Origin: an uncultured bacterium
GTDB taxonomy: Bacteria; Patescibacteriota; Saccharimonadia; UBA4664
Assembly (NCBI GenBank): GCA_963720265.1
Contig: CAVRET010000002.1
Location: forward strand, 584,704 to 648,703
DNA length: 64,000 nucleotides
Direction of reading: 5' to 3'
Made by a program: the position numbers and the translations under genes. Position 1 is the stretch's first letter, and each line of letters begins with the position of its first letter. Shown here in pieces: positions 7,652 through 42,958 of the stretch. The notes beneath the pieces were generated by a model. That model was not told the DNA's origin. It did no database searches and saw only the letters and a program-made list of their open reading frames with translations.

Positions 7652-8206
7652 CTACAAATTCTCGCGTCGCCTCGCCACAATCTCAGTCCGATTGTTATCT
7701 GCGCCGGGCCGATCCAAATGCGATTTTGTGGCAAAGTCCACCAGTTCCAAGTAGCTGGTGAGGGCATAGTCATCACCCTCACCATACAGCTTCTGGAATC
7801 CAGCCTGATTTACCCGTAGGCCCACTATCGCACTTCCCGCACTCGAACCTACGTATACTTTCGTCTCCAGCCATCGCGGCAAACGACGGCTCAAACCTGT
7901 TCTGTTGAACACGTTCATCAAATAGTCGGTGTAGCCTCCGAGCACAAAGAACAGATCGGCAGCCTCAAGCCGATCCATGTATTCCAACTCCGTAAGCGCG
8001 AGTAGATTGACTAGGTCATACACGCCGCCAAAAGCCGCAGCACCTTGAACAAGCTCCCGAACCGCCCAACGGTTACCAACGTCATACACGTAACCTTCGT
8101 TGATGACAGCAATATTGATCTGCTCAGCCGGCTTTCCAACTAAACGGACGGCCGTTTGCGCAATAGCGTCATTTGCAAATCCAGTCGAGGTCAAAAGCAA
8201 CTTCAT
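7652..8206 (-). CDS. peptidase E-like (S51) protein; C-terminal part displaced into another frame (7539..7682), apparent frameshift
   Basis: MKLLLTSTGF...VGSSAGSAIVG matches the paralog at 42955 and peptidase E; the alternative frame downstream encodes EATREFVGTVYGLPDGTALAVDGDMVSAIGDG, which matches the peptidase E C-terminus. Confidence 0.55.
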   Translation of the reverse strand: MKLLLTSTGFANDAIAQTAVRLVGKPAEQINIAVINEGYVYDVGNRWAVRELVQGAAAFGGVYDLVNLLALTELEYMDRLEAADLFFVLGGYTDYLMNVFNRTGLSRRLPRWLETKVYVGSSAGSAIVGLRVNQAGFQKLYGEGDDYALTSYLELVDFATKSHLDRPGADNNRTEIVARRRENL

Positions 8207-8287: not shown

Positions 8288-8362
8288 TGGTAGCCCCACG
8301 GGGAGTCGAACCCCGGTTGCCAGGATGAAAACCTGGTGTCCTAACCGCTAGACGATGGGGCC
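8288..8362 (-). tRNA. tRNA-Glu (anticodon UUC)
   Basis: Reverse complement GGCCCCATCGTCTAGCGGTTAGGACACCAGGTTTTCATCCTGGCAACCGGGGTTCGACTCCCCGTGGGGCTACCA forms a cloverleaf, has a TTC anticodon in a 7-nt loop, a GTTCGACTCC T-arm and an encoded CCA. Confidence 0.85.
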
Positions 8363-9480: not shown

Positions 9481-10921
9481 CGGTGCGAACCTGCTGAAGC
9501 AGGCGGGCACGTACCGCCACCGGCCGGGAGGGTGCGATCATGCACCCACCCGGCCCGGCCGCAAATTACGTTGCAATTATTCATAAACGGAAAACGGGGC
9601 CTCACCAAAAGTGGCGAGGACCCCGAAAGAAAGGGGAGATTGGCCCGAGCATAGCCCAGGTTACTCGGGCCACCCCCGCGACGCGTTACCCGTGGTTCCT
9701 AGGCACCGTCTGGATCCTGTGCACCTCGACTCATCAGAGGCTGCACATGACGGTATTGCCCGTCGGGCGATGATGCGGCCGCGTTTTCAGATTTTGCGCA
9801 CCAGTAGCCAGTACATCAGCGACCGGATCCTAGGTACCTCTTGCACCCCCCGCGTTCGGAGGCTGCCCAAATCGGGCCCCTGGAGGCATCAGGGTTTTTG
9901 GGTGTAAGGGATATTTGGTCGGCGCAGGGCACGACTCCTTCTCCCTTGCGCGCAAGGCCATCTGCAGAATTATCCTGCACAATCAGCCTCACCCAGGCAG
10001 TAATTCCCAGGTCACGAACCCGGCGAACTCTACACTCGCGCGCCAGCTCGAGACTAAGATTATCCTCGAAAGGACCCCGGCAGTATAGGTAAAGCTACCA
10101 TCATTGTCAATAAAATTCCCAACGAAAAAGGGCCTCGCTAATGCGAGAGCCCTGTCTGTTTCTCGAGCGCCTAGGAAGGCTCTCAAGAAAGTGGTGGGGA
10201 GGAGCGAGCATATCTCGGTGCTCACTCCAACCCCCGAACGTGGCGGCTTCACCCTAAGGGTCGTGTATCTCTGCCGTTTCTTGGGCGTATCCCAGGGTTT
10301 CCCCGGGTGATCATCGCCTGGCAGTTTCTTGCCCTTTTGGGTCCCGGCATGCCGCCGTACCTAGTGTCACCGGTGCTCCGGTCCGAGTTCCTCTCTACCT
10401 GGAGGCTGAAGGTTGGAAGAGCCAGCCGTCACGGCCAAGCCAACTCTCCCCGTACACACCACGGCATCTTCGGCATACAAGCCCGAAGAGTCCACAGTGT
10501 TCAAGACCGGTACCCCGAGGGGCTGGCCCGAAGGCCTCCGGAGCCGTGTGTCTAGCACCTGGCAGGCGCTGGACGTTCTCGTCGTCGTGCCCATCGGGCG
10601 TGTATGACCCCGCGAGCCTGGGTCCCGATCTTGCCGCTCCACCCTGGGAGCGACCATTCCCCGGCCTCACCGATCGCTTCAACACTTGGTGCCAAATCTA
10701 TCGCACTTCGTGCAAACGCCTCGGAAATGCCGGTACTGCCGCGCGATATAAACCATTAACAGAACTTTGTCAACTCTTTTTACAAGCTTTCCCCCAACAA
10801 CACTTTTGCTTATTCATTATCCCAATCTCTAGCTCAAGCCAAAAACCATTTGGAGTTTTGCACTTGTCAGATCGCAAATCGAGTGGATACGATAAGATTA
10901 CAATTAAAGGTGAGGTGTCCT

Positions 10922-11506
10922 ATGAGTTCTCGTGCCATAGCAATAACCCGCGCTGTCTCCGTCATTGGCGGTACGACAGCGCTGATCGTCGCTGCAACCT
11001 TTGCAGCTGTGTCATCAAATCCGGTCACGATATCGGGCATTAGCCTGGCATCAAGTGACGTCCAGGCCCTAAATGTCTACGACTTCACTGGAAATAGCTT
11101 CACAGGAGACACCAGCAACCCTGGCAACACTGGTGCCATAAATGCCGACCTGACAACCTCGACACCGGGAACGCAGTACCCGTTCTATCTGCAAAACACA
11201 AGCGGCACAAGTCTTAACATATCGGCCACAGCCAATCCAACCGCTAGTGGAAGCTTAGACCCGAGCAACGTTGAGGTGACGTTCTGGGATGACTCAACCG
11301 GGGCACCCACTCAGCTGGGACAAGGTACGCTCGCAAGCATGCAGGCCGGGACTAGCGTAGCTCTCAATGCGTTGGCCGCTGGCGCCACAGGTAGTAGCAG
11401 TAGCAATGTGGCCGGCAACTACGATGTCAGCTTCAACCTTATCGCTCCCGATTCAAGCTTCGATACGCTGAGTACTGTGCAGTTGATCTTCACGGGTACG
11501 CCGTAA
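10922..11506 (+). CDS. TasA/camelysin-like secreted protein with a SipW-cognate-type signal peptide (paralog 1)
   Basis: The ORF starts at 10850, but a strong SD (AAAGGTGAGGTG) precedes the ATG at 10922. N-terminus MSSRAIAITRAVSVIGGTTALIVAATFAAVSS is followed by a Thr/Ser/Gly-rich beta-type domain. A SipW-type peptidase gene follows immediately. Confidence 0.5.
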   Translation: MSSRAIAITRAVSVIGGTTALIVAATFAAVSSNPVTISGISLASSDVQALNVYDFTGNSFTGDTSNPGNTGAINADLTTSTPGTQYPFYLQNTSGTSLNISATANPTASGSLDPSNVEVTFWDDSTGAPTQLGQGTLASMQAGTSVALNALAAGATGSSSSNVAGNYDVSFNLIAPDSSFDTLSTVQLIFTGTP

Positions 11507-11556
11507 GTTAGAATAAAGTCCAGGCTCTAGTTCATAGTTCGTAAAGGATTCCCGGC

Positions 11557-12672
11557 ATGAAATTACTTTGGCGCATCGCTAAATTTGCTCTGGTCACTAT
11601 CTACGCTCTGTGCGGGCTCGCACTGTTGCTGTTCTTGGTGCCGGCTACCGGCTTTGAAGCCAAAGAGATCGCCACCGGCAGCATGCGCCCGGCCATTCCA
11701 CCGGGATCCTTAGTCATTATTCACAAGACTCCGCTTAATCAACTCAAGGTCGGCAACGTCGTAACGTACACTAAGTCGGTCAATCCGCCGGTAACGATTA
11801 CGCACCGGATTGTGAAAACGGAAACGAAAAGCGGCGCGCCCTACTTCATCGTTAAAGGCGACGCCAACCCGGCGCCGGATCCGGCTGTGCCCGGCGGGCT
11901 GATTGTGGGCAAGGTCATCTTCCACGCGCCGTATATTGGCCGCGTGGCGATCGATATGCGCAACCCGGTGGTGATCGTGATCATTGTGATCATTCCCGGG
12001 CTGCTGATAATCGCGGATGAAATAATCCGGCTGCGCAAGGCCTTTGGCAGACCCGCGGCGCAAAAGAGCGAACCGACCGAACCGCCCGCACCACCAGCTA
12101 CAAAGGCGAAGGAGGCGGAAGTTGCGGTTAGCGCGGTGAAGAAACCGGTGGCTGTGCCCGCCCGCCGCCGGACAATGGACGGCATGAAGCCCAGACAGCT
12201 GGTGGTTACGCTGGCGGCTTTGTCCATGGTCGCGTTTGGCGTCAAGACAACCTACGCCGAAATTGCCTCAAATGCCGTGACCATTAGTGATATTAAGCTC
12301 TCGACTGGCGGCGGTTCCGGCAGCGGCAGTGGCGGCTCGCCCAGCCCGTCACCCAGCCCCACGACGCCGGCCTGCCCTAGCGGCGACATTTTGATCCAGG
12401 ACACCGGCGCCGGCTCGATCAACATTATTGATTGTAAGAACAAAAAGACCGGCAAGGTCGTGACGATCATTATTAACAACATCGATAACTCAAATAGCCA
12501 GTCGTCGAGCTCCGGCAATGTGAACAGCAGCGGCAACACGAACAGCGGCAATACCGGCAGCGGCAACTCGAGCAACTCCAACTCAACCACAACGACCGTT
12601 AACAATAACAAGCCTTCACCGTCGGCCAGCCCGTCGCCGACGCCGAGCGCGAGTCCGACGCCTCATTCATAA
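11557..12672 (+). CDS. sipW: signal peptidase I, SipW/archaeal type (S26B), with a C-terminal TM, PS linker and Cys-motif extension
   Basis: TGSMRPAIPPGSLVII (Ser box), VVTYTKS, ITHRIV (His box) and FIVKGDANPAPD. C-terminal extension SPSPSPSPTTPACPSGDILIQDTGAGSINIIDCKNKK plus an S/N/T-rich tail. Confidence 0.7.
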   Translation: MKLLWRIAKFALVTIYALCGLALLLFLVPATGFEAKEIATGSMRPAIPPGSLVIIHKTPLNQLKVGNVVTYTKSVNPPVTITHRIVKTETKSGAPYFIVKGDANPAPDPAVPGGLIVGKVIFHAPYIGRVAIDMRNPVVIVIIVIIPGLLIIADEIIRLRKAFGRPAAQKSEPTEPPAPPATKAKEAEVAVSAVKKPVAVPARRRTMDGMKPRQLVVTLAALSMVAFGVKTTYAEIASNAVTISDIKLSTGGGSGSGSGGSPSPSPSPTTPACPSGDILIQDTGAGSINIIDCKNKKTGKVVTIIINNIDNSNSQSSSSGNVNSSGNTNSGNTGSGNSSNSNSTTTTVNNNKPSPSASPSPTPSASPTPHS

Positions 12673-12733: not shown

Positions 12734-13483
12734 TTACGAAAAGATGCGCAGCTCCATCGCGAGCCGCGCGAAGGCGGCTTCCGGCGGCAGTTTTTGGCTA
12801 AACCGAGTACTGCCTAGATGGTGTCCCAGAGCGCCGGCGTAGAACAGCCACGGGTGCGCTACCATCTGAGCAGCCTCGCTAGCATCGTCCCAGGCTCGTT
12901 CTCTGAGCCTGCGCCGCGTGTGGTTGAGACTCAGACCAATGGCGTAGTGCAGCAACACCGCCGCCCGTAGCAACGTGTCGTCGCCCGCCTCCAGTAGGTC
13001 TCGGGCGATCTTAAAGTGCGCGAGCGCATCCTTGAACCGCCGGAGCGAAATCATCAGGCGACCGCGGAACAACGCCACTAGGCACCTGAGCGTCGTGTCT
13101 TCGTCGCCGGCCACCTCTGCGGCCCCGACGAGGCCGTGGTGTGCGTCTTCCAGCTGGTGCATAAGGCGGAAGACATCGGCCTGTAGCACCATGATGAGCA
13201 CTAGCCACGATGCACGGCCCGGGGCATCCGGCTCCATGGCACAAGCATGCCAGCGAGCCTGCTCCAAGTGGGCAAAACTCTTCTTCCACCCCTGAGCGTC
13301 GTCCATGTCTATGACTGCCAGGCCGAGGTGGGCCAGCAGCTGTGGGACGCCGGGGTATTCGCCTGCAAGTATCTCTCTGGCAAGCGGACCGATGAAATAT
13401 TGGACGAAGCCTTCGCGCAGCTCGCGGTGAAGCTTCGCTTCCAGAATGCCGGGATCGGGGTGAGGTTCACTAGCGTCGGTCAT
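12734..13483 (-). CDS. hypothetical alpha-helical protein
   Basis: 249-aa ORF, GC-rich. Confidence 0.4.
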   Translation of the reverse strand: MTDASEPHPDPGILEAKLHRELREGFVQYFIGPLAREILAGEYPGVPQLLAHLGLAVIDMDDAQGWKKSFAHLEQARWHACAMEPDAPGRASWLVLIMVLQADVFRLMHQLEDAHHGLVGAAEVAGDEDTTLRCLVALFRGRLMISLRRFKDALAHFKIARDLLEAGDDTLLRAAVLLHYAIGLSLNHTRRRLRERAWDDASEAAQMVAHPWLFYAGALGHHLGSTRFSQKLPPEAAFARLAMELRIFS

Positions 13484-13737
13484 GTCAAGCTCCCCTTTCT
13501 GGGGCTTTTGCGTACCATAAACGCTCGAGCCATCATTCTAGCTGTCAGGCTCGGGCAGCGCAATTGCTGATCGCGCAAGCTGCGCACGACGAAAGTCCGC
13601 GGGACTACTGGCGGACCAAGCCGCTGTGGCTGCGATGCCTCATGGTGACGGCCGTAGTGCTACTCGTGCTGCTGCACCGTTAATGAAGCCCCTTGCAGGT
13701 CGCGAGGGGCTTCATTACGCCTAATTGATGGGCTGCA

Positions 13738-14607
13738 TCAGTCCTCAACGTCTTCCTCCTCATTGATGTCATCATCTTCGGGCGCTATGACCTTCTCCCA
13801 AATCTTTCCCGTCATTTCATGTGCCTTGAGTCTCTCGGCCGTCGTAAACCACATTGCGATGTCCTCGCCCCACTTATCTTCAAGCAGTCGTTTGGTAGCT
13901 CGCTTGCAGTAGATCAAATCGGTGAGGGTTGGGCAGATGAACAGGGCGATTGGGTTTGGCTCCTCCTCTCCCGTCTCATCTTGCCAATATCCGTCTTCCA
14001 GGTACTCAATGTAGTTCTTGAGCCGCTTCCTCACTCTTTGGCGGGGCATGGTGGCTTCGATGATTTCGATGAAGCGCGTGGTGTCCGTGAAGTCGTCGTC
14101 GGTCTCAACCGTCCTTTCGAACACCAGCTGCGGGCGGATCAAGTCAGACTCACTCAGGAAATGATAATCGCTCTCTAGGTCGAAGTAGTCGGCTTGGGTG
14201 GTGTATAGATAGTGAACGCGGCTGGTGGTGGCATTTGCTAAGTTACTGTTGTGCATGGTGATGCAACAGTCGGCTACAAGCACACACTGCTCAACGAAGC
14301 CCGGGCTGCGGGACGACTCCCGGTAGCGCTTGCGAAACTCCTCGATCGGGTGACCCTGATTCTCCTTGAGCCATCGGATGCCGTTTAAGCCGAGATAGTA
14401 GATCGCTGGCTTAGATTTTTCTAGAAAGTTAGTTGAGTAAATCCATTCGACGTAATGGTTAGCTCGAAGGTCCGCGAGCCACGCATTAATCCGCTTGTAA
14501 TCTTTATGACCCATAAGCGTTTGTATTTGGATACGATTTAAGAATCTGTATTTGTACAGCAGTTTGAGTATAGTTTGTTGTCTTGGAGTTAGTTGCGGCA
14601 GTTTCAT
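13738..14607 (-). CDS. replication-relaxation family protein (plasmid/ICE-type)
   Basis: N-terminus LTPRQQTILKLLYKYRFLNRIQIQTLM matches the replication-relaxation (PF13814-like) wHTH signature; acidic C-terminus; local GC clearly lower than the flanks. Confidence 0.55.
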   Translation of the reverse strand: MKLPQLTPRQQTILKLLYKYRFLNRIQIQTLMGHKDYKRINAWLADLRANHYVEWIYSTNFLEKSKPAIYYLGLNGIRWLKENQGHPIEEFRKRYRESSRSPGFVEQCVLVADCCITMHNSNLANATTSRVHYLYTTQADYFDLESDYHFLSESDLIRPQLVFERTVETDDDFTDTTRFIEIIEATMPRQRVRKRLKNYIEYLEDGYWQDETGEEEPNPIALFICPTLTDLIYCKRATKRLLEDKWGEDIAMWFTTAERLKAHEMTGKIWEKVIAPEDDDINEEEDVED

Positions 14608-14976
14608 TTGATGAGATAGTTAGTGGATATTATAGGTAGCGATTAGTTCTGACGTTTTTTTGTTTGTCTTGTTTTGAGTGATGATATTTTGCCAACCCCA
14701 CCTACCCGTTATTTATATGGTAGGTGCCACGCTTATTCAAATATTACTGCGTATAAAACCCTCTTTATTGTCCTAACCCACTAGGACAAAGGTTACAAAA
14801 AGAAAATGCCCTTATATCGGCGCAGGGGCAACCGCATTGCAGGGCGTTAAGCCTTATTGATGAGCGATTTGTATCAGGCCGTACGGACGGCGGGCTCCCT
14901 GCTCATTTACAGATGCTGTAATTTATGTAAAAGTATTGCGGTATCGAACAAGTTGACAGTGAGAAGGTGATGCAAC
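14608..14976. promoter_or_regulatory. AT-rich divergent intergenic region between the replication-relaxation gene (-) and a membrane protein gene (+)
   Basis: AT-rich tracts (ttttttgtttgtcttgttttgag; tatttatatggtagg). Confidence 0.3.
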
Positions 14977-16095
14977 GTGGCCGCAGATCAGCGGTTTACG
15001 CTAGTGCTTCCGCCAGCGACCCAAGAGCCGGACCTCGCAACCGAGATCGGGGATACCGTCGGCTACATTCCGACGCGCGTGGCTGATTGGTACAAGGCCA
15101 AGACCGAACGAGACGTTAGCGCCCGGCTCCGGCAGCGGACGACGCAGTGTTTCCGCCTCCGGGGCTTCGGGATAGCGTTGACTCCGCTCGGCTTGGTCCT
15201 GATTGTGGATCATTGGCGCGCGCTGGGCATCGTGCTGTACGTCGTGGGCGTCGCAGTCTGGGCGGCTACCATGGAAAAATGCGACGCCATGCACGCGCAG
15301 CTGGACCGGCTGTGTTTGACCGCCACCTGGCACACGGAACGGTTGCTCGGCGATCTTAAAGGCGACCACAACCTGTCCAGGTACGCGATTGGTCTAGCCC
15401 ATCTCGTCCGGCAGCAGCTGGGTCCAACCGCCTGGCTGTACGTCGAGCGGCTTGTAGCCCATGACGGCGACGCTACGAATGATACCGTGGCGCTCTATGT
15501 CCTGCGCAGCGGTCAGCAGTGCTATCTACAGTTCTGGGCCGGCGATGAGCCGGTGTACCTGCCGCGCTGCGGGGCCGACCAGGTAGCGCGGCGCACCGCC
15601 CTTGGACAGGCCTTGCTGGTCGGTGGTGTCCAGGTACGCGAATCCGCTCCGTTGCAGGCGTTCCAGGAGCGGATCAAAGAACTCGCAAGCCGCCAGCAGT
15701 TCGTGGAGCTCATGATCGCCCTCCTCGGCCTCACCGCCGGGTTGGCATGCATCGGAGTGGCCACCCTGCAGCTTTACCTCAAGGCGGCAACCCGGGCGGA
15801 GGCCATAGAGGCGTTGGCCATTCCGGCGCTTATCGGCCTCATCATCGTCGCGATATATTATATCCGCTACCGACGGGGGCCGCGCTGGCGCACGGTGTCC
15901 ATGCCGCCGAACAACACCGTTCCGACCGACCAACTGGAGGTACTGGAAAAAGTCCAGGCCGCCCTGCCACCGGACGCCACCTTGGCCACGGAAGTACTCA
16001 GGGTGCCGCTCATCGGTACGGTGATCTGCTGCCAGGTTGAACGCGACGATGTCGTGGTCGGCGTGGCATCCTGGATCAACAAACGAACGCTGTGA
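14977..16095 (+). CDS. hypothetical membrane protein (2+2 TM helices)
   Basis: 372-aa ORF; hydrophobic segments LGLVLIVDHWRALGIVLYVVGVAVWAA and LGLTAGLACIGVATL...ALIGLIIVAIYYI. Confidence 0.4.
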   Translation: MAADQRFTLVLPPATQEPDLATEIGDTVGYIPTRVADWYKAKTERDVSARLRQRTTQCFRLRGFGIALTPLGLVLIVDHWRALGIVLYVVGVAVWAATMEKCDAMHAQLDRLCLTATWHTERLLGDLKGDHNLSRYAIGLAHLVRQQLGPTAWLYVERLVAHDGDATNDTVALYVLRSGQQCYLQFWAGDEPVYLPRCGADQVARRTALGQALLVGGVQVRESAPLQAFQERIKELASRQQFVELMIALLGLTAGLACIGVATLQLYLKAATRAEAIEALAIPALIGLIIVAIYYIRYRRGPRWRTVSMPPNNTVPTDQLEVLEKVQAALPPDATLATEVLRVPLIGTVICCQVERDDVVVGVASWINKRTL

Positions 16096-16188: not shown

Positions 16189-18711
16189 TTATGGGAACTG
16201 GCTAAGCAGCAATGCCGAAGTGCTCGTGGCGGCACCGCTGGGAGTTACCTCCATATCAACCCAGTACGTTTGTCCAAGTCCTTTAACATAAATATCCGGA
16301 TAAGCGTTGGGCGGGCCAACGGCAAATACCGCTTGTCCCTGCGTTGATCCACCTTGGTCAAAATTCGCCGGAGCTCCGGACCCGGTATATGGTGAAGTCG
16401 AGCTGGCTGCATAGATACCGGGCACGTGCATCACACCGTTGCGGATGCCGTCGAACGTCGGGCCGGCATTTTGGATGGCGCTTCCCGGGAACTGGTAGGC
16501 CGCGCCGATGTTGAAGTAGTAGAGTTGCTTGGCCGACCAGGCATCGGGAACGGCCGCGCTGTTGTAGACCGACACCCGGTAACGTCCGGCCGGCAGGGTT
16601 ACGCCTGTTAGTGCGCACGATACCCACCCCGAGCCGGCGATACCGCTCCAAGTCGGGCTGGTGTTACTGGCTACTATCGCCTGAGTGTCCTCGTCCCACA
16701 CGTCGCAGCGTGTGGCTAGCTGGGCGGTCCCGGACGGGCTGTAATACCAGATATTATTTACAGCACAGCTTTGGTTGAGCCGCATCTCCGTGCCAACGAC
16801 GTAGTCGACTGCCGAATCCCCGGTGGTGAATTGGTCGCCGTAAAACTTGTTTGGCCACGCGCGGTAGCTGCCGGTATAACCGTTTGGTGTGGTGGTGGTA
16901 ACCTGGATATCGATCCAGAAATTGGCAGAGTTGGATACACCCAAGGGGCACGTCGCAGACGGGTCAGTGCCGCCGACGGTAAATAGTCCTTGGCCGATAT
17001 TGCCACCGCCGTTGTATTGCGATGATCCGTATGACGAGTTGCCATCGGCAAAGGCCAGGATCGGGCCATTTTGGATGCCGTTAGGATGACCGCCTGCACC
17101 AAACGAGTCAACCGCGCCGGTCCCCGCACCGGACGTGTCTGAATCCGGAAAAGCGCCGTTAATGCCGGTCGCGGCAATGTAACGAGTAATTTCCGACAGC
17201 AAAATCGGCATTGGCAGCGCAACGTAATTCCACCCGGTCGACAGCGCGCCCGAGGTCACAACCGAGCCGGGCACCAGTGTTGTATCAGTAAAGTTAAGGG
17301 GGTTGATTTGCCAGAGGGCGAATTTCTGCGGCGCAGTCAAGCCGCCGGTCGGGCAGACCCAGTGCCAATAGCCCTCAAACCAACAATTGCCCTGGAGCGT
17401 CATAAAACCAACACCGGAGATAAAGTTGCCCGAGTACGACACAGGTGTCGTCGGCCCGTTCCCGGGCCGCCCGTCTTGGCCGTCCATGAAGCGGTAATTC
17501 GCCGCCGGCTCCGGCACCACCTCGACGTCGATCCAGTACAGCGCGTAGGTAAGGGTGGCATTGTCCGGATAGGCCCAGGTATTGGAGTTGTATGACATCT
17601 GCCCCGGGGAAGCTGCGCCATAGCCGGGTATGGTCAGAATGTCTTGCGTGAAACCGGAGCCATACATCTGTCCGGTGTTAAACATATTGTCCGAATACGC
17701 CCACCAGATTGAACCGCCGGCATTAAACGTGGCAACTTTATAATCACCGGCCGCGAGCGTGATAGCGGCGCTCCGGTAATCGCACTTAATCCACCCATTG
17801 CCGGCCGTTGCCGCACTACCGTCCACGTTCACCCAGGTTGGTGAGCTGTTGTCCGTCCCGGCTACAACCGTCTGACTGCCAACGTCCCAGACCGCACACC
17901 GCGTCGGCAGCACGGTCGCCCCCGACGGCGAGTAGTGCCAGATGGACGCCAGCTGGGCTGACTGGCTCAGCGAAAATTCCATCCCAAGTGTAAAGCCGCC
18001 GCTGCTGGTGTCCGTCTGAATCGGAGTCGGCACCGTCGGCCAGGCCCGCTCCGGCGTGCCCGGCGGAACCGCATCTGTCACCTGCACATCGAGCCATAAA
18101 AGGTCGTCTGCATCGTTATTATCGGGTTGGTGCACCGAAGCATCGGCGCCGTTGGTATTAAACGGCTGTTGGGGCCAAAACGTGCTCGCGCTGCTGCCGC
18201 TGGGGTAGGCCATAAGCGGCCCATTAGTGATGCCGTTGACGTATGGATCGCCCGACCCGAACTGATTTTTCGTGTCAGGAAAACCAATCGTGGTGCTGTA
18301 GCCTATCGCAGCCACGTATGGAACATTTGGGGTAAGCGGTATGGGGTTACAGGGAACAAAATTCCACGCCCCGGCTGTGAACGCGCCAGTCCACAGCACC
18401 TCAGACGCCGGAATAACGGTAGCGTCGGGGTAATCGTAAGCCTGCCACAAGGCAAAACCAATGTTCGTGTTGGTGTCGCCGCCGGTTGGCACCCACCACC
18501 AGTAGCCGTTGAAATAGAGACCGCCAGCAGTCACATTAAAAACCAGCCCGGCTACATAATTGCCGCTGTACGCCGTTGGTGAACCCGGCGGCTGGGTGCC
18601 TGAGGATCCAACCCCCGGGCGGCCGCTTTGGCCGTCCATTAAGCGGTATGTACTCACGATCTGTACTTCATACTGCAAACAATTATAGTGAGACCAGGCT
18701 ACTAACCACAA
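16189..18711 (-). CDS. large repeat protein with four DUF4082-like domains arranged (A-B)x2; no N-terminal signal peptide in the longest frame
   Basis: 840 aa. Repeats begin YRLMDGQSGRPG / YRFMDGQDGRPG (A) and GMEFSLSQ...IWHYSPSG...RCAVWD / GTEMRLNQ...IWYYSPSG...RCDVWD (B). Each ends in LLWLDVQV / LYWIDVEV / NFWIDIQV / TYWVDMEV, like the NYWVDVVF ending of DUF4082. The ORF-track start is a non-ATG (TTG) codon; the first ATG is at 18639. Confidence 0.55.
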   Translation of the reverse strand: MWLVAWSHYNCLQYEVQIVSTYRLMDGQSGRPGVGSSGTQPPGSPTAYSGNYVAGLVFNVTAGGLYFNGYWWWVPTGGDTNTNIGFALWQAYDYPDATVIPASEVLWTGAFTAGAWNFVPCNPIPLTPNVPYVAAIGYSTTIGFPDTKNQFGSGDPYVNGITNGPLMAYPSGSSASTFWPQQPFNTNGADASVHQPDNNDADDLLWLDVQVTDAVPPGTPERAWPTVPTPIQTDTSSGGFTLGMEFSLSQSAQLASIWHYSPSGATVLPTRCAVWDVGSQTVVAGTDNSSPTWVNVDGSAATAGNGWIKCDYRSAAITLAAGDYKVATFNAGGSIWWAYSDNMFNTGQMYGSGFTQDILTIPGYGAASPGQMSYNSNTWAYPDNATLTYALYWIDVEVVPEPAANYRFMDGQDGRPGNGPTTPVSYSGNFISGVGFMTLQGNCWFEGYWHWVCPTGGLTAPQKFALWQINPLNFTDTTLVPGSVVTSGALSTGWNYVALPMPILLSEITRYIAATGINGAFPDSDTSGAGTGAVDSFGAGGHPNGIQNGPILAFADGNSSYGSSQYNGGGNIGQGLFTVGGTDPSATCPLGVSNSANFWIDIQVTTTTPNGYTGSYRAWPNKFYGDQFTTGDSAVDYVVGTEMRLNQSCAVNNIWYYSPSGTAQLATRCDVWDEDTQAIVASNTSPTWSGIAGSGWVSCALTGVTLPAGRYRVSVYNSAAVPDAWSAKQLYYFNIGAAYQFPGSAIQNAGPTFDGIRNGVMHVPGIYAASSTSPYTGSGAPANFDQGGSTQGQAVFAVGPPNAYPDIYVKGLGQTYWVDMEVTPSGAATSTSALLLSQFP

Positions 18712-18895: not shown

Positions 18896-19471
18896 ATGAC
18901 TAGACGCTCATTTGCAATCGCCCGGGCCGCTGCCACGATCGGCGGTATGGGTGCGTTAATAATTGGAGCGACGATGGCCGCTACCAATGTCGGCACCGTG
19001 GCGCTAACGGCCAATTCGTTCGCGACCACGTCCACCGGCTTACAGATTTCCAACGATGGCAGCACATTTAGTGACACCGCCACCGGGTTTGACTTTGGCA
19101 GTCTTACGACGGGTGGTACATCAACTAAAGAAAACATGTGGCTTCAGGACACCTCAGGTGGCACGACACCACTCGGCATTACGCTCGCTGCGGCCAATGT
19201 CGGCGCGCTCACCGGCCTGAATCCCGCCGACGTCATGGTAAACGTCGAAGCCCACGGCGGCTCCACGGTTGATAGCTTCTCGCTCTCGTCTCTGGAATCA
19301 AGCACACCGGCGCTCAGCGCGGCCAACGAGCCGACCATTGAAAGCGACGGCACGCCGGTCCCGACCGAGTACGACGTTTGGCTGTCACTCAGCTCCGGCG
19401 CCGTTACCGGCACCACGGATCCTACGAGCAACACGTTTGACCTCAACTTCACCGGAACGAGTAGTTCGTAA
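18896..19471 (+). CDS. TasA/camelysin-like secreted protein with a SipW-cognate-type signal peptide (paralog 2)
   Basis: MTRRSFAIARAAATIGGMGALIIGATMAATNVGTVALTANSFATTSTG resembles the SipW-cognate signal class. Thr/Ser/Gly-rich body; followed 3 nt later by the SipW paralog. Confidence 0.5.
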   Translation: MTRRSFAIARAAATIGGMGALIIGATMAATNVGTVALTANSFATTSTGLQISNDGSTFSDTATGFDFGSLTTGGTSTKENMWLQDTSGGTTPLGITLAAANVGALTGLNPADVMVNVEAHGGSTVDSFSLSSLESSTPALSAANEPTIESDGTPVPTEYDVWLSLSSGAVTGTTDPTSNTFDLNFTGTSSS

Positions 19472-19473
19472 CC

Positions 19474-20496
19474 ATGAGGGCGCCTACGCAAGCTTTCCGC
19501 TGGATTGGCCTGGCCGCATACGCGGGCCTCGCCACGCTCATCATCCTCTTTCTCACGCCCATTGGTGGTTGGAAGGCCCTTGATGTGCTCACGGGAAGCA
19601 TGCGTCCGGCAATTCAGCCGGGCGCCCTTGTCATCATTCATCGTGTACCACTCAGTTCGGTTCATCCCGGCAATGTGGTCACCTATGTTAATCCGCACGA
19701 TACCAAAGAGCTGATCACCCACCGGGTGCAGTCAGTCAATAAGGTCAACGGCGTCACCATGGTGACGGTCAAGGGCGATGCCAATACCATCGCCGACCCG
19801 CCGTTTGCCGGGGGCCAAATTCAGGGCCGGGTGGCAACGATTGTGCCCTATGCCGGTCGTGTGCTCAATGTTATCCACAATCCCTATGGTCTGGCGCTGC
19901 TCGTCATTTTGCCGGCCCTATTTGTAATATGGATCGAAGCTAGGAGGTTGATGGGCGTGCTGGTTGAAGAATCCGACCCCGCGACGCCCGGCTCAGGCCG
20001 CTCCGGCGGTCTGCCGGTAGCAATCCGCTTTCGCCGCCCCCGGGAGATTAAGCAAACAGACGCAGGCCGACCACTCGACGGTATGCGCCGGCTCGCGGTG
20101 TTGCCGGTCGTGGCCATCGCCTTGGCCGTATTCGCGGTTGGAGTAACACTGGCCGCGCTCACCAGCACGGTCTCGCTCACCGGCAACAGCTTCCAAACCC
20201 AAGTCAGCGGCTCGCCCAGCCCCACGCCTTCTCCTAGTGGCAGTCCAACTCCATCGCCCTCGGGTTCGCCCACGCCGTCCGGCTCACCGTCGCCGACTGC
20301 TTCACCTTGCCCCACCAATGTCTCAATTACTGACACCGGTGCCGGCTCTACTAACATCGTGCGCTGCACCTCCAAGACCATCATTACCAACTCAAATTCA
20401 AACAACGTAAGCGTTACGAATTCAAATCATCAGTCCACCTCGGGTGGCGGTTCCAGTACCAACACTCAGACCACCAACATTAACGTCACCTATTAG
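19474..20496 (+). CDS. sipW: signal peptidase I, SipW type (paralog 2) with a TM, PS-linker and Cys-motif C-terminal extension
   Basis: TGSMRPAIQPGALVII, VVTYVNP, ITHRVQ, VTVKGDANTIADP; extension SPSPTPSPSGSPTPS...PCPTNVSITDTGAGSTNIVRCTSK. Confidence 0.7.
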   Translation: MRAPTQAFRWIGLAAYAGLATLIILFLTPIGGWKALDVLTGSMRPAIQPGALVIIHRVPLSSVHPGNVVTYVNPHDTKELITHRVQSVNKVNGVTMVTVKGDANTIADPPFAGGQIQGRVATIVPYAGRVLNVIHNPYGLALLVILPALFVIWIEARRLMGVLVEESDPATPGSGRSGGLPVAIRFRRPREIKQTDAGRPLDGMRRLAVLPVVAIALAVFAVGVTLAALTSTVSLTGNSFQTQVSGSPSPTPSPSGSPTPSPSGSPTPSGSPSPTASPCPTNVSITDTGAGSTNIVRCTSKTIITNSNSNNVSVTNSNHQSTSGGGSSTNTQTTNINVTY

Positions 20497-20543: not shown

Positions 20544-21371
20544 TTATTTCAATAAGCTCGAAGGGGATGGATTATAGCCGAAAAGTTCTAAGTTCAACTC
20601 AATTACCTCCGGAGTAACAAGACTAGCGTACAAGTTTGCGGCGTCTCTATTGCGGGCGAATAGATGCCATCTGTCAGTAACATCCATGTCTTGAGCACGA
20701 CCCTGTAGAGTGAGACCATCGAATGAACTACCCTCACCAATGCCAGAGACCTGGTTGATGCCTAGGTCTTCGTTTAAGAATCCCAGCTGAATTGCAACCC
20801 TATCTCTGTATTCCTTATTCTGAAACCATTTATCGTAGAGAATAGCAGCGAAATCACCTTCAGACATATTAACGATAGCATGCGCGTTTTCTACCCAAAC
20901 ATCACGCACATCCATCAGGCCAAGGCGATGAATGTTACGCGTCTCGCCTCTAGCCTCGACATTACGGCGTCTCTGTATTTGTGAAGCAATGAGGTTGGGG
21001 AAATTTCTTAATAACAACACGTCAATGCAATTGCTTCGTGTAAAAGTCGTATAATGCTCCTGTAGCCTTCGTTTGGCGAACATCAGGTCTTCATAGCTTA
21101 CGACTACATATCTGGGTCTGCCACGATCAATTGCTGACAGCATGTAGTCTACGTCAAGATACGGTTTTGAGGGATCGGCTGGATGACGCGGTTCATTTAC
21201 GGCATTAAAATGCGCAACCCCACCTTTCTGGCCACGGCTTAGTCCTTCACTAAGCCATCCTATCAAGGCATGATTGCCTGAACGTTTAAGTCCGAAAAAA
21301 TGAATGTACGTCACACTTTGTGACTGACCAGCAATGATAGCTTCTGTACGTAACGAATCTACTTCTGGCAT
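20544..21371 (-). CDS. hypothetical protein, possibly a sulfotransferase-like P-loop fold
   Basis: FFGLKRSGNHALIGWL resembles the 5'-PSB PKSGTT motif of sulfotransferases; lower GC than the surroundings. Confidence 0.3.
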   Translation of the reverse strand: MPEVDSLRTEAIIAGQSQSVTYIHFFGLKRSGNHALIGWLSEGLSRGQKGGVAHFNAVNEPRHPADPSKPYLDVDYMLSAIDRGRPRYVVVSYEDLMFAKRRLQEHYTTFTRSNCIDVLLLRNFPNLIASQIQRRRNVEARGETRNIHRLGLMDVRDVWVENAHAIVNMSEGDFAAILYDKWFQNKEYRDRVAIQLGFLNEDLGINQVSGIGEGSSFDGLTLQGRAQDMDVTDRWHLFARNRDAANLYASLVTPEVIELNLELFGYNPSPSSLLK

Positions 21372-21754: not shown

Positions 21755-22894
21755 ATGCCAAAAACTCGAAATAAAAATCTGCCAGGACGCAATGGTCTCG
21801 GCCGTTATTTGCTGGGCGCTGTGGTGATATTAGCTTCCATTGTCATCGGTCTAGTGGTGGTACACGTGAAAGCGGCCGGGCTGGTTGGGGATCTCAATGA
21901 TGACGGTGTGGTCAATGTGCTTGACTTGTCGATTCTGCTAAGCGACTGGGGGCAAACAAACGCCGCCATTGAGCAAAACCTCGGACAAACCGGGCCCGTT
22001 GGCGTCATTGACCTGTCGATCTTGTTGTCTCACTGGGGGGATACTGCCTCGACACCCACACCTTCGCCCAGCCCGTCCCCAGTCGCGGCAGGTTGTGTCA
22101 GCGGCGGCGTGGTTGCACCGTGCATCGGCGGAGCTTCTACGGGCGCCAGCGGTTGGGGGACACCCATATTTGATGACGAGTTTAATGGGACTAGCCTGAA
22201 TACCAGCAACTGGAGTACAGGGTGGTTTGGTAGCGGAATCACCGGTCCAGTCAATAGCCTTGAAGATGATTGTTATAACCCGGACCTCGTAAGTATTTCC
22301 GGGGGTTATCTTGATGAGCAGATTATTCAACAAACCTGCACTGGGCGGCTTGGATCGGAACCATACTCTGCAGGCTACATAACTTCAATGACCTCGGGTG
22401 GAGGTAGTGACTTGTTCGGCTTCACTTACGGCTTCATAGAAGCCCGTATTTACTTCCCGGCAGCGTCCAACGGTGAAGTTGCCAACTGGCCGGCTTTCTG
22501 GCTACAAAGTCTGCATGACGGCAGCCAAACTGCGCCGAATACGGAAATAGATATCGAGGAAGGCCTGCATGGAGCGCTAAGGTGGCATGTGCTTGGGGCC
22601 GGAGGAACTACGGTTTGTACTGATGGCGACACTGGACCAGGATGGCACACTATCGGCCTTGATTGGCAGCCTGGTTCGGCGACTTTCTACTATGACGGTG
22701 TAGCAGTTGGGAGTACTTGCACAAGTAGTGCGCTTGATCCTGCTAATACTGGAGAAATGAGAATAGCTTTGGGCGAACAGACTAGCGCCACCATTGCAGG
22801 GCCGCAGACCGCACCACAAACAATGCAGACCGATTACGTTCGGGTTTGGCCTACAACTGGTACAGTTTATACATACGATGGCAGCTCAAATTAA
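21755..22894 (+). CDS. secreted glycoside hydrolase family 16 (laminarinase/beta-glucanase-like) with an N-terminal dockerin-like repeat pair
   Basis: N-terminal TM/signal, then DLNDDGVVNVLDLSILLSDWGQT and GPVGVIDLSILLSHWGDT (dockerin type I-like). PSPSPSP linker; GH16 catalytic motif EIDIEE, and FWLQS. Confidence 0.6.
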   Translation: MPKTRNKNLPGRNGLGRYLLGAVVILASIVIGLVVVHVKAAGLVGDLNDDGVVNVLDLSILLSDWGQTNAAIEQNLGQTGPVGVIDLSILLSHWGDTASTPTPSPSPSPVAAGCVSGGVVAPCIGGASTGASGWGTPIFDDEFNGTSLNTSNWSTGWFGSGITGPVNSLEDDCYNPDLVSISGGYLDEQIIQQTCTGRLGSEPYSAGYITSMTSGGGSDLFGFTYGFIEARIYFPAASNGEVANWPAFWLQSLHDGSQTAPNTEIDIEEGLHGALRWHVLGAGGTTVCTDGDTGPGWHTIGLDWQPGSATFYYDGVAVGSTCTSSALDPANTGEMRIALGEQTSATIAGPQTAPQTMQTDYVRVWPTTGTVYTYDGSSN

Positions 22895-32794: not shown

Positions 32795-35700
32795 TTGCGC
32801 TATCATCAGGAGGTGCATCCACTCCTTTCTGAACTCAACGACGAACAACGCCGCGCCGCCGAGACCATAAACGGCCCGGTACTCATTTTGGCCGGCGCGG
32901 GTAGCGGCAAAACCAAAGCTCTCACGCACCGCATCGCCTACCTGGTAGCAGAAAAGCGCGTCCGGCCGTTGAACATTCTGGCCGTCACCTTTACCAACAA
33001 AGCCGCGGCCGAAATGCGCGGCCGTGTTCTGGGTTTGCTCAACCTGCCGCCGGACAGCCGTAGCTATTTCCCATTTATCGGCACGTTCCATTCCATCGCC
33101 CTCAGGCTGTTACGCGCCAACGCTGCCGTAGCCGGCTTGCCGTCCAACTTCCTCGTTTTCGATGCGGCTGATTCGCAGGCCGCGGTCAAACGTGCCCTCC
33201 GCAGCGCTGCCGTTGACGACAAGAAATTCACTCCCAATCTCATTGCAAACCTCATCTCCAGCGCCAAAAATGAACTCATCGGGCCAAAAGCTTATGCCAA
33301 ACTGGCGGCCGGTCAGGCTGGGAGTGTAGCCGCCAAAGTGTATCCCCTCTACCAAGCCATCTTGGCCGAAGCCGGCGCGCTCGATTTCGACGACCTGCTT
33401 TTCCGCACGGTTGAACTCCTGCGTGACAATCCCGAAGTTTTGGCCAAATACCAGCAGCAATTCCAATACATCATGGTCGATGAGTATCAAGACACCAACC
33501 ATGCCCAGTACCAATTCACCAAATTGCTGGCAGCAAGCCATCATAATCTCTGCGTCGTGGGCGACGACTGGCAGTGTCTGCCCCCGACCACGGTAATTGA
33601 AACTGCATCAGGTCCCAAGCGAATCAAAGATGTTGCCAAAGGCGAGCTTGTACGAGCCGCCGCAGGATTCGGCAAGACAGCCATGTTTAAAGTGCGAAAC
33701 ACTCGTGAAACATGGTTCAACGGCGGTTTAATTCAGCTCAAAACAGCCTCCGGACGCGAGCTTACTTGCACACCGGGCCATATTCTTTTTGCGAAATTCG
33801 CGCAAACGGACGCTTACTTCGTATATCTAATGTACGCGCATAAGATTGGATATCGAATCGGCGTTGCCAAGGGAACAAGGTTTGACGGAAAACTCTACGA
33901 TATTGGACTAAGAGTGCGCGCAAATCAGGAACGCGCTGATCATATATGGGTACTCAAAGTATGCGACGACAAGGCCGAGGCCATGTTTACCGAAAGTCTC
34001 CTCGCTTATAACTATGGCATTCCCATGACTGTCTTCCGGGCCTACGCAAACCGGCGCATGAAGTTCGATCAACTGTACATTGACCGGCTGTATCAGGAAA
34101 TCGACACCGAAAAACGGGCCAGGCATCTAATGGCCGATGTCGGGCTAATGTTCGACTACCCCCACTTCTCGCCGCAGGCGACAACGAGAAACGGGCGCAA
34201 GCGGGTGAGCATCAACATTGTGCTTTTTGGTGACCGACGAACAACGGCACAAAGCCCATGGTCTGCAAGTCGAATGTCCGCCAACACTTCTGATACGCAA
34301 GACCTGCAGTGGTTCGAGCAGGTTGGGTATTCGATACGTCCCGGAAGAGCGGATACATACCGCTCGGAAACACAAAATCTAGATTTCGGCAAGATTGAGC
34401 AAACACTGCAATCAATGGGTGTCGAGCATACTGACAATCTAGAAATAAGCCGGTGGGCTTATCTCACCGATCATAGATTTAGTTTCATGCCTGCAGCCCA
34501 AATCCACCGCGAAATGATGGTGGCTCAACTAGATTCCAGCGGCCAGCTAGTTGAGGACAGGGTAACAGCCACAAGCAAAGTGAACTATTCAGGTCCGGTC
34601 TTCGATCTTGACATCGATTATGTGCACAACTATCTAGCAAACGGTATTGCGGTCCACAACTCCATTTATTCCTGGAGGGGCGCAAATTTCCAAACAATCC
34701 TCGATTTTGAAAAAGACTATCCCGAAGCTACCATTATTAAACTTGAACAGAATTATCGCTCCACCAAGCCGATACTAGATGCCGCTCACGCCGTCATAAC
34801 CAAAAATCGCGTCCGCAGTGATAAAAAGCTCTGGACCAATCGCGAAGGGGGAGCGGGCCTGGGCATCGCCAACGTTTACAACGAAATCCAAGAGGCCGAG
34901 TGGGTGGTCCGGCAAATCCGCGACCTGCAAGTGGCCGAAAAGCGTGAGCTCTACGATTTTGCCGTTCTATATCGCACCAATGCACAGTCGCGCTCACTCG
35001 AGGAAGGCTTCTTGCGCGCAGGTGTTCCCTACAAAATCGTCGGTGGCACGCGTTTCTACGAGCGCAAAGAAATCAAAGACGCGCTGGCCTATCTGCGCTT
35101 CATCTACCAGCCCGACGACGCCGTCAGCTTCGGCCGCATCATCAATGTACCGGCCAGGGGTTTAGGTGATGTTACCCTCCAGCGCCTTGAACAGTGGCGC
35201 GCAAACGCAGCCGGCACAGCCCGTCCCACCAACTTACTCGACGCATCCCGAACGGCCGACCAAATCCCCGGCCTCCAAGCCAGGGCCGCCGTAGCACTCA
35301 AGGCCTTCGCCGACCTCATCGACGAACTTCGCACGAAGTCCACCTCGCTCGATCCGGCCGCCCTCCTTGACCTCACCTTAAAGCGCTCTGGCTACCTGGC
35401 CTCGCTCGACGACGGCTCCATCTCAGCCGCCGATCGCATCGAAAACGTCAAAGAGCTCCTGTCTGTCGCCGAAACCTACAACGGCCTCGGTCTCCAAGCC
35501 TTTCTCGAGGAAATCGCCCTCATCTCCGACCTCGACAACTATTCCGAATCCACCAATGCCGTCACACTCATGACCCTCCACGCCGCCAAGGGCCTGGAGT
35601 TTCCCGTCGTCTTCATCGTCGGCATGGAAGAAGGCATTTTCCCGCACTCGCGCGCGCTGTTTGATGCCGAGCAAATGGAGGAGGAGCGCCGATTGTGTTA

Positions 35701-42487: not shown

Positions 42488-42958
42488 ATGGATTCAACCA
42501 CGATATATCAAACCACCAGCAGCCAGCCCGTATCCGCCGGTGCGACCGCCGGTCTGATCGTATTGCAGCTTGTTATTTTGGTTGTCGCTATTGTCCTCAT
42601 TGTATCAATGTGGAAGCTTTTCAAAAAAGCCGGCCGGCCCGGCTGGGCAGCCATCATCCCTTTTTACAATGCCTATATCTTGATTAAAATTGCCGGCCGG
42701 CCCGGCTGGTGGCTCGTACTCTACTTAATACCAATAGTAAACCTCATAATCGGGATCATCATCGTTATAGACATAGCTAAGGCCTTCGGCAAGTCTGGAG
42801 CGTGGGGCTTCTGGATGCTCTATATCCTCAGCTTTATCGGGTATCCAATACTAGGTTTTGGTTCAACCCAGTACCAGTCGGGAGGTAATGGTGGTACCAA
42901 CCCGGCTATGCCCGTACCGCCACCCATACCGCCGGTGGCTCCGCCGCCCGCCGCATGA
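42488..42958 (+). CDS. small membrane protein with an internal AGRPGW repeat and a Pro-rich tail
   Basis: 156 aa; KKAGRPGWAAIIPFYNAYILIKIAGRPGWWLVLYLIP. Confidence 0.4.
   Translation: MDSTTIYQTTSSQPVSAGATAGLIVLQLVILVVAIVLIVSMWKLFKKAGRPGWAAIIPFYNAYILIKIAGRPGWWLVLYLIPIVNLIIGIIIVIDIAKAFGKSGAWGFWMLYILSFIGYPILGFGSTQYQSGGNGGTNPAMPVPPPIPPVAPPPAA

Follow-up and report, generated by a model that had tools for sequence, protein, structure and literature searches.

In this work we describe a short patch of the chromosome of an uncultured bacterium (Patescibacteriota; Saccharimonadia; UBA4664). The window, i.e. the whole stretch of DNA that was analysed, comprises 64,000 nucleotides of contig CAVRET010000002.1 (assembly GCA_963720265.1, positions 584,704 to 648,703). 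The patch hosts an intact replication-relaxation (RR) gene, a leader and a conserved non-coding module upstream of it, and the last codons of an IS1595-family transposase gene (Table 1). We show that these are the surviving internal piece of a passenger-carrying transposon of the IS1595 family, a type that is widespread in Saccharibacteria. The initial annotation of this DNA had recognised the RR gene in a patch of lower GC content at 12734-16095. It had read this patch as the likely remnant of an integrated plasmid or of an integrative and conjugative element (ICE).

A transposon remnant in the window

When the 12-17 kb part of the window is compared with related loci using blastn, homology is confined to 13728..14873, with 79-80% identity over 1116-1154 nt to three of these loci (L004, L005 and L007). 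There are no further matches to related elements elsewhere in the 64 kb. Only this 1.15 kb belongs to the remnant. The two GC-rich open reading frames (ORFs) on either side have no counterpart at any related locus.

The upstream end of the remnant is the tail of a transposase gene, with the last 8 codons and the stop codon (YKSLINKA*). The transposases of L007 and L005 end in ...MYKSLINKA and ...MYKSLISKA respectively, and with respect to the RR leader the tail in the window is placed as in the relatives (alignment A2). Homology is lost upstream of about 14874-14880, and a divergent 372-aa ORF starts ~100 nt beyond. Downstream, homology ends ~10 nt past the RR stop codon, at 13728 (alignment A4). 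A local hairpin, which is outside the remnant, sits where relatives have two conserved hairpins and is unrelated to these.

Little else of the transposon is left. Tested as an IS1595 tIS, the window copy has only the last 8 codons of the transposase and no tblastn match to it. Neither terminal inverted repeats (IRs), allowing up to 9 mismatches in 26, nor other transposon fragments are found in the window, and there is no 8-bp target-site duplication (TSD) or flanking repeat at the copy. The locus lacks transposase, IRs and TSD, and is therefore a remnant of an IS1595-family transposon and not a member. A deletion or rearrangement removed the transposase gene, bar its last 27 nt, together with both IRs, the downstream hairpins and any cargo. 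The copy is no longer able to transpose. In itself it is an ordinary decayed mobile element, flanked by two GC-rich lineage-specific ORFs within a region that is otherwise core chromosome.

The direct ancestor was a passenger-carrying transposon rather than a plasmid or ICE, because the transposase tail is kept and because the relatives are IS1595-type transposons bounded by IRs and flanked by TSDs. A parallel decay may have taken place at L006. Here the sequence aligned with the transposase 3′ end seems to hold an in-frame stop (alignment A2, read by eye), and the clustering of ORFs contains no transposase ORF for this locus.

Table 1. Coordinates of the remnant and its features within the 64-kb window (a dot marks a feature without strand).
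Feature	Position	Strand	Description	Evidence
Whole remnant	13728..14873	-	Transposase tail, non-coding module, leader and RR gene	blastn homology to related loci
Transposase relic	14847..14873	-	IS1595 family, last 8 codons and stop, YKSLINKA*	Translation, alignment A2
Hairpin 1	14768..14789	-	TTGTCCTA-gtgggt-TAGGACAA, 8-bp stem, conserved GGGC-type loop	Covariation, RNAalifold
Non-coding module	14682..14789	-	Conserved, accompanies RR	nhmmer, 98.6 bits in the window
-35-like hexamer	14740..14735	-	TTGAAT, 17-nt spacer to the -10-like TATAAA
Helix 2	14699..14726	-	Imperfect repeat CACCTACC ... GGTAGGTG bracketing the -10-like element	Conservation
-10-like hexamer	14717..14712	-	TATAAA	Within helix 2
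Shine–Dalgarno-like motif	14702..14696	-	GGTGGGG, a GG(A/T)GG motif	Overlaps 3′ arm of helix 2
Leader	14608..14695	-	A/C-rich, ~90 nt, no Shine–Dalgarno motif, specific to the window's clade	Sequence, alignment A2
RR gene	13738..14607	-	PF13814, MOB_C-like, intact, 289 aa	Pfam match and homologues
Local hairpin	13681..13717	.	16-nt arms, 94% complementary; outside the remnant	Sits where relatives have two conserved hairpins

Related loci and the intact element

The related loci, 80 in number, were taken from one-genome-per-species contigs. Almost all are titled Candidatus Saccharibacteria, Saccharimonadia or Saccharimonadales metagenome-assembled genomes (MAGs). Clustering the ORFs around 83 RR copies, window included, and assigning these to Pfam families gives the following picture. 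In 33 of the 83 copies the gene directly upstream, on the strand of RR, encodes an IS1595-family transposase, and in 12 more this transposase is nearby. A large serine recombinase is found upstream of RR, in divergent orientation, in 20, and a coupling-protein-like ATPase (TrwB_AAD_bind, TraG-D_C, T4SS-DNA_transf) lies within 10 kb in 11. Seven copies, including that of the window, have none of the three and a flank of at least 3 kb. The contexts of RR are non-syntenic among the relatives.

The transposase beside RR matches DDE_Tnp_IS1595 (3.9e-43, e.g. in L007) and Zn_ribbon_IS1595. A good example of the intact element is found at L007, on a complete MAG chromosome. Perfect 26-nt terminal IRs at 8784-8809 and 13172-13197 enclose the transposase, RR and cargo, and the element, 4414 bp in total, is flanked by the 8-bp TSD ACTACTTA. 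A systematic search located terminal IRs and perfect 8-bp TSDs in 17 of 23 transposase-adjacent loci, with elements of 3.1-9.6 kb. The IRs of these relatives measure 25-31 nt and have the core TATATACTTGAC, and the TSDs are mostly AT-rich. Since IRs and TSDs enclose RR in these relatives, it counts as a regular passenger, or partner, of active IS1595-type transposons. The order of the intact element is IR, DDE transposase, conserved module of ~110 nt, RR, two hairpins, variable cargo, IR.

The two hairpins are conserved past the RR stop codon in L004, L003, L005, L006, L008 and L047. The one is ACTTTCGTTTG..CAAACGGAAGT and the other, which is terminator-like, AACCTATTT..AAATAGGTTTT. L007 carries both ~1 kb further on, after inserted cargo (11845..11879), and they are absent from the window. 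Other relatives are of an island type, where RR is accompanied by a recombinase or a type IV coupling protein (T4CP) plus XRE, RadC and PLD-nuclease genes. Examples with a serine recombinase and T4CP are L019, L020, L050 and L075.

The replication-relaxation gene

The RR protein begins with MKLPQLTPRQQTILKLLYKYRFLNRIQIQTL, which had been quoted in the initial annotation as an N-terminal replication-relaxation signature. This assignment is borne out by the match to PF13814 (Replic_Relax; E=1.9e-13, 51.4 bits, cutoff 25.3), which spans residues 14-213 and model positions 1-186 of 191. In addition, phrog_2190 matches residues 8-79, and the match to 'replication initiation by nicking' in PHROGs is weak. 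Searches of NCBIfam and a profile sequence search of the PDB returned nothing for this protein. The AlphaFold2 model has a confident alpha/beta C-terminal domain, with a predicted local distance difference test (pLDDT) score of 80-97, and an N-terminus that reaches only 45-59.

The first 31 residues are kept in full-length homologues, therefore the start that gives 289 aa is correct. The public record of an identical protein starts at M32 (258 aa), which cuts the conserved N-terminal helix of the predicted winged helix-turn-helix (wHTH) domain.

The family is large. A first search gave 531 homologues, with 40-84% identity among the matches listed, and a profile search gave 1033 50%-identity clusters at E<=1e-3. 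Two or three RR paralogues are frequent per genome. At the level of BLAST there are no relatives on the 72,556 plasmids of PLSDB (tblastn) and none in IMG/VR.

The gene of the window is full length and retains the conserved residues of the family. Among 121 sequences, position 140 is D or E in 115, position 181 is E in 116 and position 184 is D or E in 120; the window has D140, E181 and E184. Y199 and Y233 are invariant or nearly so. At position 190, 102 sequences have Y and 14 have H; the 3 with Q include that of the window. Compared with eight relatives, the ratio of nonsynonymous to synonymous substitutions (dN/dS) is 0.04-0.15 where computable, with dS ~1 or higher. Judged by these features, the gene itself is not decayed. 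The decayed element that had been suspected here is real as regards the mobile element, which has a transposase tail and no IRs, and does not extend to the gene.

The non-coding module

A profile was built from ten close loci, using the ~110 nt that precede RR in each. Using nhmmer, this module is detected in 77 sequences, window included. There is one match per locus, directly upstream of RR and on the same strand, whichever gene is the neighbour. Over the module, close relatives are 72-82% identical to the window, against only ~40% at synonymous sites; relatives with RR proteins that are ~40-57% identical reach ~57%. No Rfam family matches the module.

The module hosts two structured parts. 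In hairpin 1 both sides change in 7 of the 8 pairs and 87.8% of cells are paired; RNAalifold predicts this hairpin independently. When hairpin 1 and helix 2 are scored jointly, the observed covariation score is reached by 0 of 500 shuffles. A strand test on hairpin 1 counts 15 G.T against 36 A.C mismatches, with one pair dominating. The changes in helix 2 are one-sided, C>T only, and keep G.U pairs on the sense strand (76 against 26 of the antisense type).

Helix 2 brackets a -10-like hexamer that is spaced from a -35-like hexamer as listed in Table 1. We read the two as a putative promoter; a strict scan for sigma-70 promoters and terminators over 13.4-15.1 kb gave 0 sites. In distant clades the RR ATG lies ~9 nt past a GGAGG-like motif. 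In the window an in-frame TAA is found 5 codons upstream of the RR ATG. We also considered hairpin 1 as a terminator of the transposase gene. This was rejected, as neither strand has a downstream T-run, and the hairpin also occurs where the upstream gene is a divergent recombinase.

Composition and genomic setting

The compositional claim that drew attention to this locus holds in part. Compared with windows of the same size, the RR gene (GC 0.502) is at the 3.6th percentile, the spacer upstream of it (14608..14976, GC 0.42) at the 0.4th and the remnant as a whole (GC 0.479) at the 1.2th, where the mean GC of the window is 0.577. The downstream spacer (13484..13737) had also been called AT-rich, which it is not (GC 0.594). 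The contrast between the patch and its flanks is exaggerated, because the flanking ORFs are GC-rich outliers themselves. That at 12734..13483 has a GC of 0.624 (95th percentile) and that at 14977..16095 a GC of 0.638 (99.8th percentile), with a GC content at third codon positions (GC3) of 0.77. Taken whole, the interval 12734..16095 is average for the window (0.573). The GC3 of the RR gene is 0.638, inside the range of the window's genes. Since its GC3 is host-like, the low GC of this gene is mostly due to amino-acid composition, above all in the first 145 nt, the N-terminal coding end (GC 0.41). Equal or deeper GC dips exist elsewhere in the window, e.g. 0.44-0.47 at 20.5-21.5 kb.

The window is core chromosome, with genes for pyruvate kinase, phosphoglycerate kinase (PGK), triosephosphate isomerase (TIM), a PcrA/UvrD helicase, the methionyl- and alanyl-tRNA synthetases (MetRS and AlaRS), MnmA and FtsA, and a single tRNA-Glu. 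A tblastn search of the 64 kb detects neither an integrase or transposase nor a serine recombinase or coupling protein, and the window holds no gene of a type IV secretion system (T4SS) and no T4CP gene. The initial annotation had reported the absence of integrase and T4SS genes, correctly. Its companion statement on the lack of a relaxase is open to question, since PF13814 and the MOB_C relaxase family are one and the same. An integrase with replication or T4SS genes bounded by att repeats was not found in the 64 kb. A search for the direct repeats or att sites that might flank an integrated element gave nothing around 12-17 kb beyond chance-level short matches. No Rfam family matches over 12-17 kb, and PADLOC returned nothing.

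A candidate mobilization cassette

What might the surviving gene and module do? Our best reading is that they are an orphaned mobilization cassette, i.e. a relaxase-like nickase with an origin of transfer (oriT) and/or promoter module. The RR gene would encode a wHTH domain and a PD-(D/E)XK-type nuclease of the PF13814 / MOB_C relaxase family. The module would be the RR promoter and ribosome-binding region together with a structured site, hairpin 1, that is recognised by the RR protein, and this site would most likely be an oriT. Where the element is intact, the cassette would nick it and pass it to a coupling protein and the chromosomal T4SS. The transposons, and the related serine-recombinase islands, would thereby be mobilizable. 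The cassette of the window would be orphaned; it still looks expressible and appears to be under purifying selection. Taken jointly, we consider a transposon remnant with such an orphaned cassette the probable explanation of the locus. For the relaxase/oriT mechanism, the best-supported option for function, the chances are about evenly balanced.

Several lines of evidence point to this mechanism. PF13814 has been placed in the PD-(D/E)XK nuclease superfamily, usually fused to a helix-turn-helix (HTH) domain (PMC3424549), and has been equated with the MobC (MOB_C) relaxase superfamily (PMC5357655). MOB_C relaxases are similar to BamHI, rely on a D-E-E metal site and depend on Y181 in TraX (PMC6736028). 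The plasmid pTEF1, which is typed MOBC by MOB-suite, encodes a TraX-like protein of 261 aa that is annotated as 'replication-relaxation family protein'. This protein scores 28.5 bits against PF13814, less than the window protein does, and its gene sits downstream of a coupling-protein gene. Among the relatives, L029 and L042 have the gene order T4CP, module, RR. One further protein, P0235 (1232 aa), has a T4CP-like region (TrwB_AAD_bind, TraG-D_C) followed by an RR domain at 984-1232; it is either a true fusion or a read-through annotation. Further points in favour are the acidic trio, the coupling-protein-like ATPases near RR in 11 of 83 copies, the association of the module with RR in 77 loci, the covariation of its hairpin and the weak PHROGs match, together with the precedent of mobilizable elements based on IS1595 (MTnSag1, tISCpe8).

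That said, a number of observations weigh against a relaxase and its oriT. A Foldseek search of the RR model against the PDB gave no significant hit (best E=0.075), with a weak enrichment of restriction endonucleases. When RR is compared with the pTEF1 TraX-like protein using hhalign, the wHTH alone is aligned, with 2% probability. D140, E181 and E184 are no more than candidate equivalents of TraX D152, E170 and E172; in an alignment by eye, TraX D152 falls opposite the non-conserved Q160. The position tentatively aligned with TraX Y181 (190) is Q in the window and H in the closest clade. T4SS and T4CP genes are absent from the 64 kb. In a survey of Patescibacteria, relaxases were present in few genomes and it was argued that the T4SS is not used for conjugation (PMC12102498). 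The module could be explained wholly as a promoter, operator and ribosome-binding site. Such a reading would cover the -35/-10-like hexamers, the Shine–Dalgarno-like GGAGG, which in distant clades precedes the ATG by 9 nt, and helix 2, where the changes are of the sense-strand G.U type only.

Alternative explanations

These points lead to the main rival, a regulatory or replication role. The RR protein may be a wHTH-nuclease regulator or a replication initiator, encoded by the transposon or island, which e.g. controls transposition or nicks DNA for replication of an excised circle. The module would then simply act as promoter and operator, under the control of RR itself, and as a leader for translation control. 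For PF13814, a role as transcriptional regulator was predicted by Steczkiewicz et al., the PHROGs matches are to replication-initiation families, and the Shine–Dalgarno-like motif that accompanies the promoter-like hexamers could be masked by helix 2 in sense RNA. Furthermore, 72 of the 83 copies have no coupling protein within 10 kb, and excision of IS1595-type elements is thought to yield a circular copy (PMC5704250). However, RR is linked to coupling-protein-like ATPases, and in one annotated protein fused to such an ATPase, in the order seen in pAD1-type plasmids. The conserved acidic trio argues for catalysis rather than binding alone. A covarying stem, an asymmetric loop that is conserved and a location ~30 nt upstream of the -35-like hexamer make hairpin 1 unusual as a simple operator. 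We regard this role as a serious contender, but the less likely of the two. A domesticated host gene, i.e. an RR gene kept after the decay of the transposon for use by the host (e.g. as a DNA-binding regulator or nuclease), is harder to defend and we think it unlikely. It would account for the intact ORF, the conserved module, the low dN/dS, the host-like GC3 and the six further RR copies that likewise have a flank of at least 3 kb and no recombinase nearby. The dN/dS values are uninformative on selection since the loss of the transposase, though, because pairwise values average the whole divergence. Moreover, solo copies are a minority, and the contexts are non-syntenic, with no conserved host neighbourhood.

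The remaining alternatives concern the origin of the patch. It was proposed to be the remnant of an integrated plasmid, an ICE or an actinobacterial-type integrative element, and island-type elements do exist in this family. About 20 of the 83 RR copies are beside a divergent large serine recombinase and 11 are near a coupling-protein-like ATPase, with XRE, RadC and PLD-nuclease genes too. But the 3′ end of the IS1595 transposase sits exactly where the closest relatives, at 79-80% nucleotide identity, have that gene. Genes for a recombinase, for replication or for a T4SS are not found in the window, nor are att-like repeats, and the searches of plasmids and IMG/VR gave no BLAST-level relatives. 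A plasmid or ICE is thus an improbable ancestor. Could the GC dip have arisen without horizontal transfer, as an ordinary effect of intergenic DNA or of amino-acid composition? The typical GC3, the average GC of the whole interval and the comparable dips elsewhere would agree with this. It is already refuted by homology, and the evidence for mobility is not compositional: the IRs and TSDs of the relatives, the transposase tail and the non-syntenic contexts. We give it next to no credence.

An orphaned mobilization cassette remains our preferred reading, and it has a bolder extension. The PF13814 gene and hairpin module might be the long-missing relaxase/oriT pair of Saccharibacteria, which would make the chromosomal T4SS that is ubiquitous in the phylum competent for DNA transfer, and the IS1595-type transposons and serine-recombinase islands self-mobilizing. 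We hold this to be doubtful. If it were true, orphaned chromosomal cassettes could serve as transfer origins, with mobilization of adjacent core genes in the manner of high-frequency recombination (Hfr) strains. Such Hfr-like transfer could take place between epibionts or into their hosts.

Comparison with known systems

The closest parallels to the transposon are MTnSag1 (tISSag10, Streptococcus agalactiae) and tISCpe8 (Clostridium perfringens). These are IS1595-family mobilizable transposons with 25-bp IRs and 8-bp direct repeats, and a co-resident conjugative system can mobilize them (PMC5704250). They share with the Saccharibacteria elements an IS1595-family DDE transposase, IRs of ~25 bp, 8-bp TSDs and passenger genes, and their preference for AT-rich targets compares with the AT-rich TSDs of the relatives. 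However, they are 1.7-2 kb long and carry a resistance gene, no relaxase and a fortuitous oriT, whereas the Saccharibacteria elements, at 3.1-9.6 kb, have their own PF13814 gene and a conserved cis module. The window copy differs further in having lost the transposase and IRs.

The cassette is best compared with TraX, oriT2 and TraW (the T4CP) of pAD1-type enterococcal plasmids, the MOB_C prototype, and with MobC of CloDF13. The proteins are PF13814 members of ~260-290 aa and, like TraX, RR has a predicted N-terminal wHTH followed by a putative nuclease-like domain with conserved acidic residues. In some relatives RR is also preceded by a coupling-protein gene, from which a non-coding region separates it, as in the TraX system. 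That said, the similarity to TraX and MobC is at the level of Pfam HMMs only and the equivalence of catalytic residues is putative. The RR element is chromosomal, transposon-borne and from Patescibacteria, whereas TraX and MobC are found on plasmids of Firmicutes or Proteobacteria.

Streptococcal integrative and mobilizable elements (IMEs) combine a MobC (PF13814) relaxase with their own VirD4 coupling protein (PMC5357655, PMC5704250). The serine-recombinase/T4CP loci L019, L020, L050 and L075 share this logic. They differ in that they come from another phylum and have very divergent proteins, and the ancestor of the window copy used a DDE transposase and not a site-specific recombinase.

A 2025 survey of Patescibacteria using MOBscan reported MOBC as the commonest type, with 58 of 109 relaxase hits, and 39 relaxase genes near t4cp (PMC12102498). 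These MOBC homologues probably overlap with the RR family. The survey does not treat transposon context, cis module or copy number, and here the family amounts to 1033 50%-identity clusters. Our literature searches turned up no description of a DDE transposon with its own PF13814 gene, nor of a linked hairpin module; the element family therefore looks undescribed.

On its own, the window is a modest result, a dead transposon fragment that explains a compositional blip. The comparison with its relatives defines a large family that is almost wholly restricted to Saccharibacteria. Its members pair a MOB_C-like gene with a covarying cis element, and the two travel jointly on DDE transposons and serine-recombinase islands, often in several copies per genome. 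If the relaxase reading is true, this would be the first mobilizable transposon of the IS1595 type with a relaxase of its own. The cassette offers a concrete candidate for tests in genetically tractable strains of Saccharibacteria.

Neighbouring genes

The ORF at 14977..16095 (+), divergent from RR, encodes 372 aa with predicted membrane segments and sits at the breakpoint where the transposase was lost. It has no homologues in 5.8 billion proteins except itself, and is therefore an ORFan. Next to it, at 16189..18711 (-), is an 840-aa protein with two internally similar halves, which belongs to the DUF4082 family by the annotations of its homologues. Its closest relative has 62% identity and an unrelated neighbourhood.

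The block that contains the remnant is bracketed by paralogous two-gene modules at 10850..12672 and 18896..20496 (+). Each consists of a small protein without a Pfam match, then a SipW/archaeal-type signal peptidase I. The first peptidase matches TIGR02228 at 87.6 bits and the second is placed by BLAST clustering alone. One of the RR loci, L036, likewise has two SipW/archaeal-type signal peptidase genes within 10 kb.

A Peptidase_S51-like gene (7652..8206 (-), GC 0.52) adjoins the sole tRNA of the window (tRNA-Glu, 8288..8362 (-)), and a second S51 gene is found at 42955..43596. An S51-like gene is also the cargo directly downstream of RR in the L005 transposon, and lies near RR in five other loci. 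No link at the DNA level was found between the S51 genes of the window and the remnant.

Elsewhere, a PcrA/UvrD-type helicase of 1111 aa at 32795..36130 (+) hosts an intein (Intein_splicing, residues 300-622), and coincides with a GC dip at 33.5-35 kb (0.50). Two further genes, perhaps a separate acquisition, deviate more in composition than the RR gene does. These are an ORF at 20544..21371 (-), with GC 0.452, GC3 0.41 and no family match, and a GH16-like gene at 21755..22894, with GC3 0.50.

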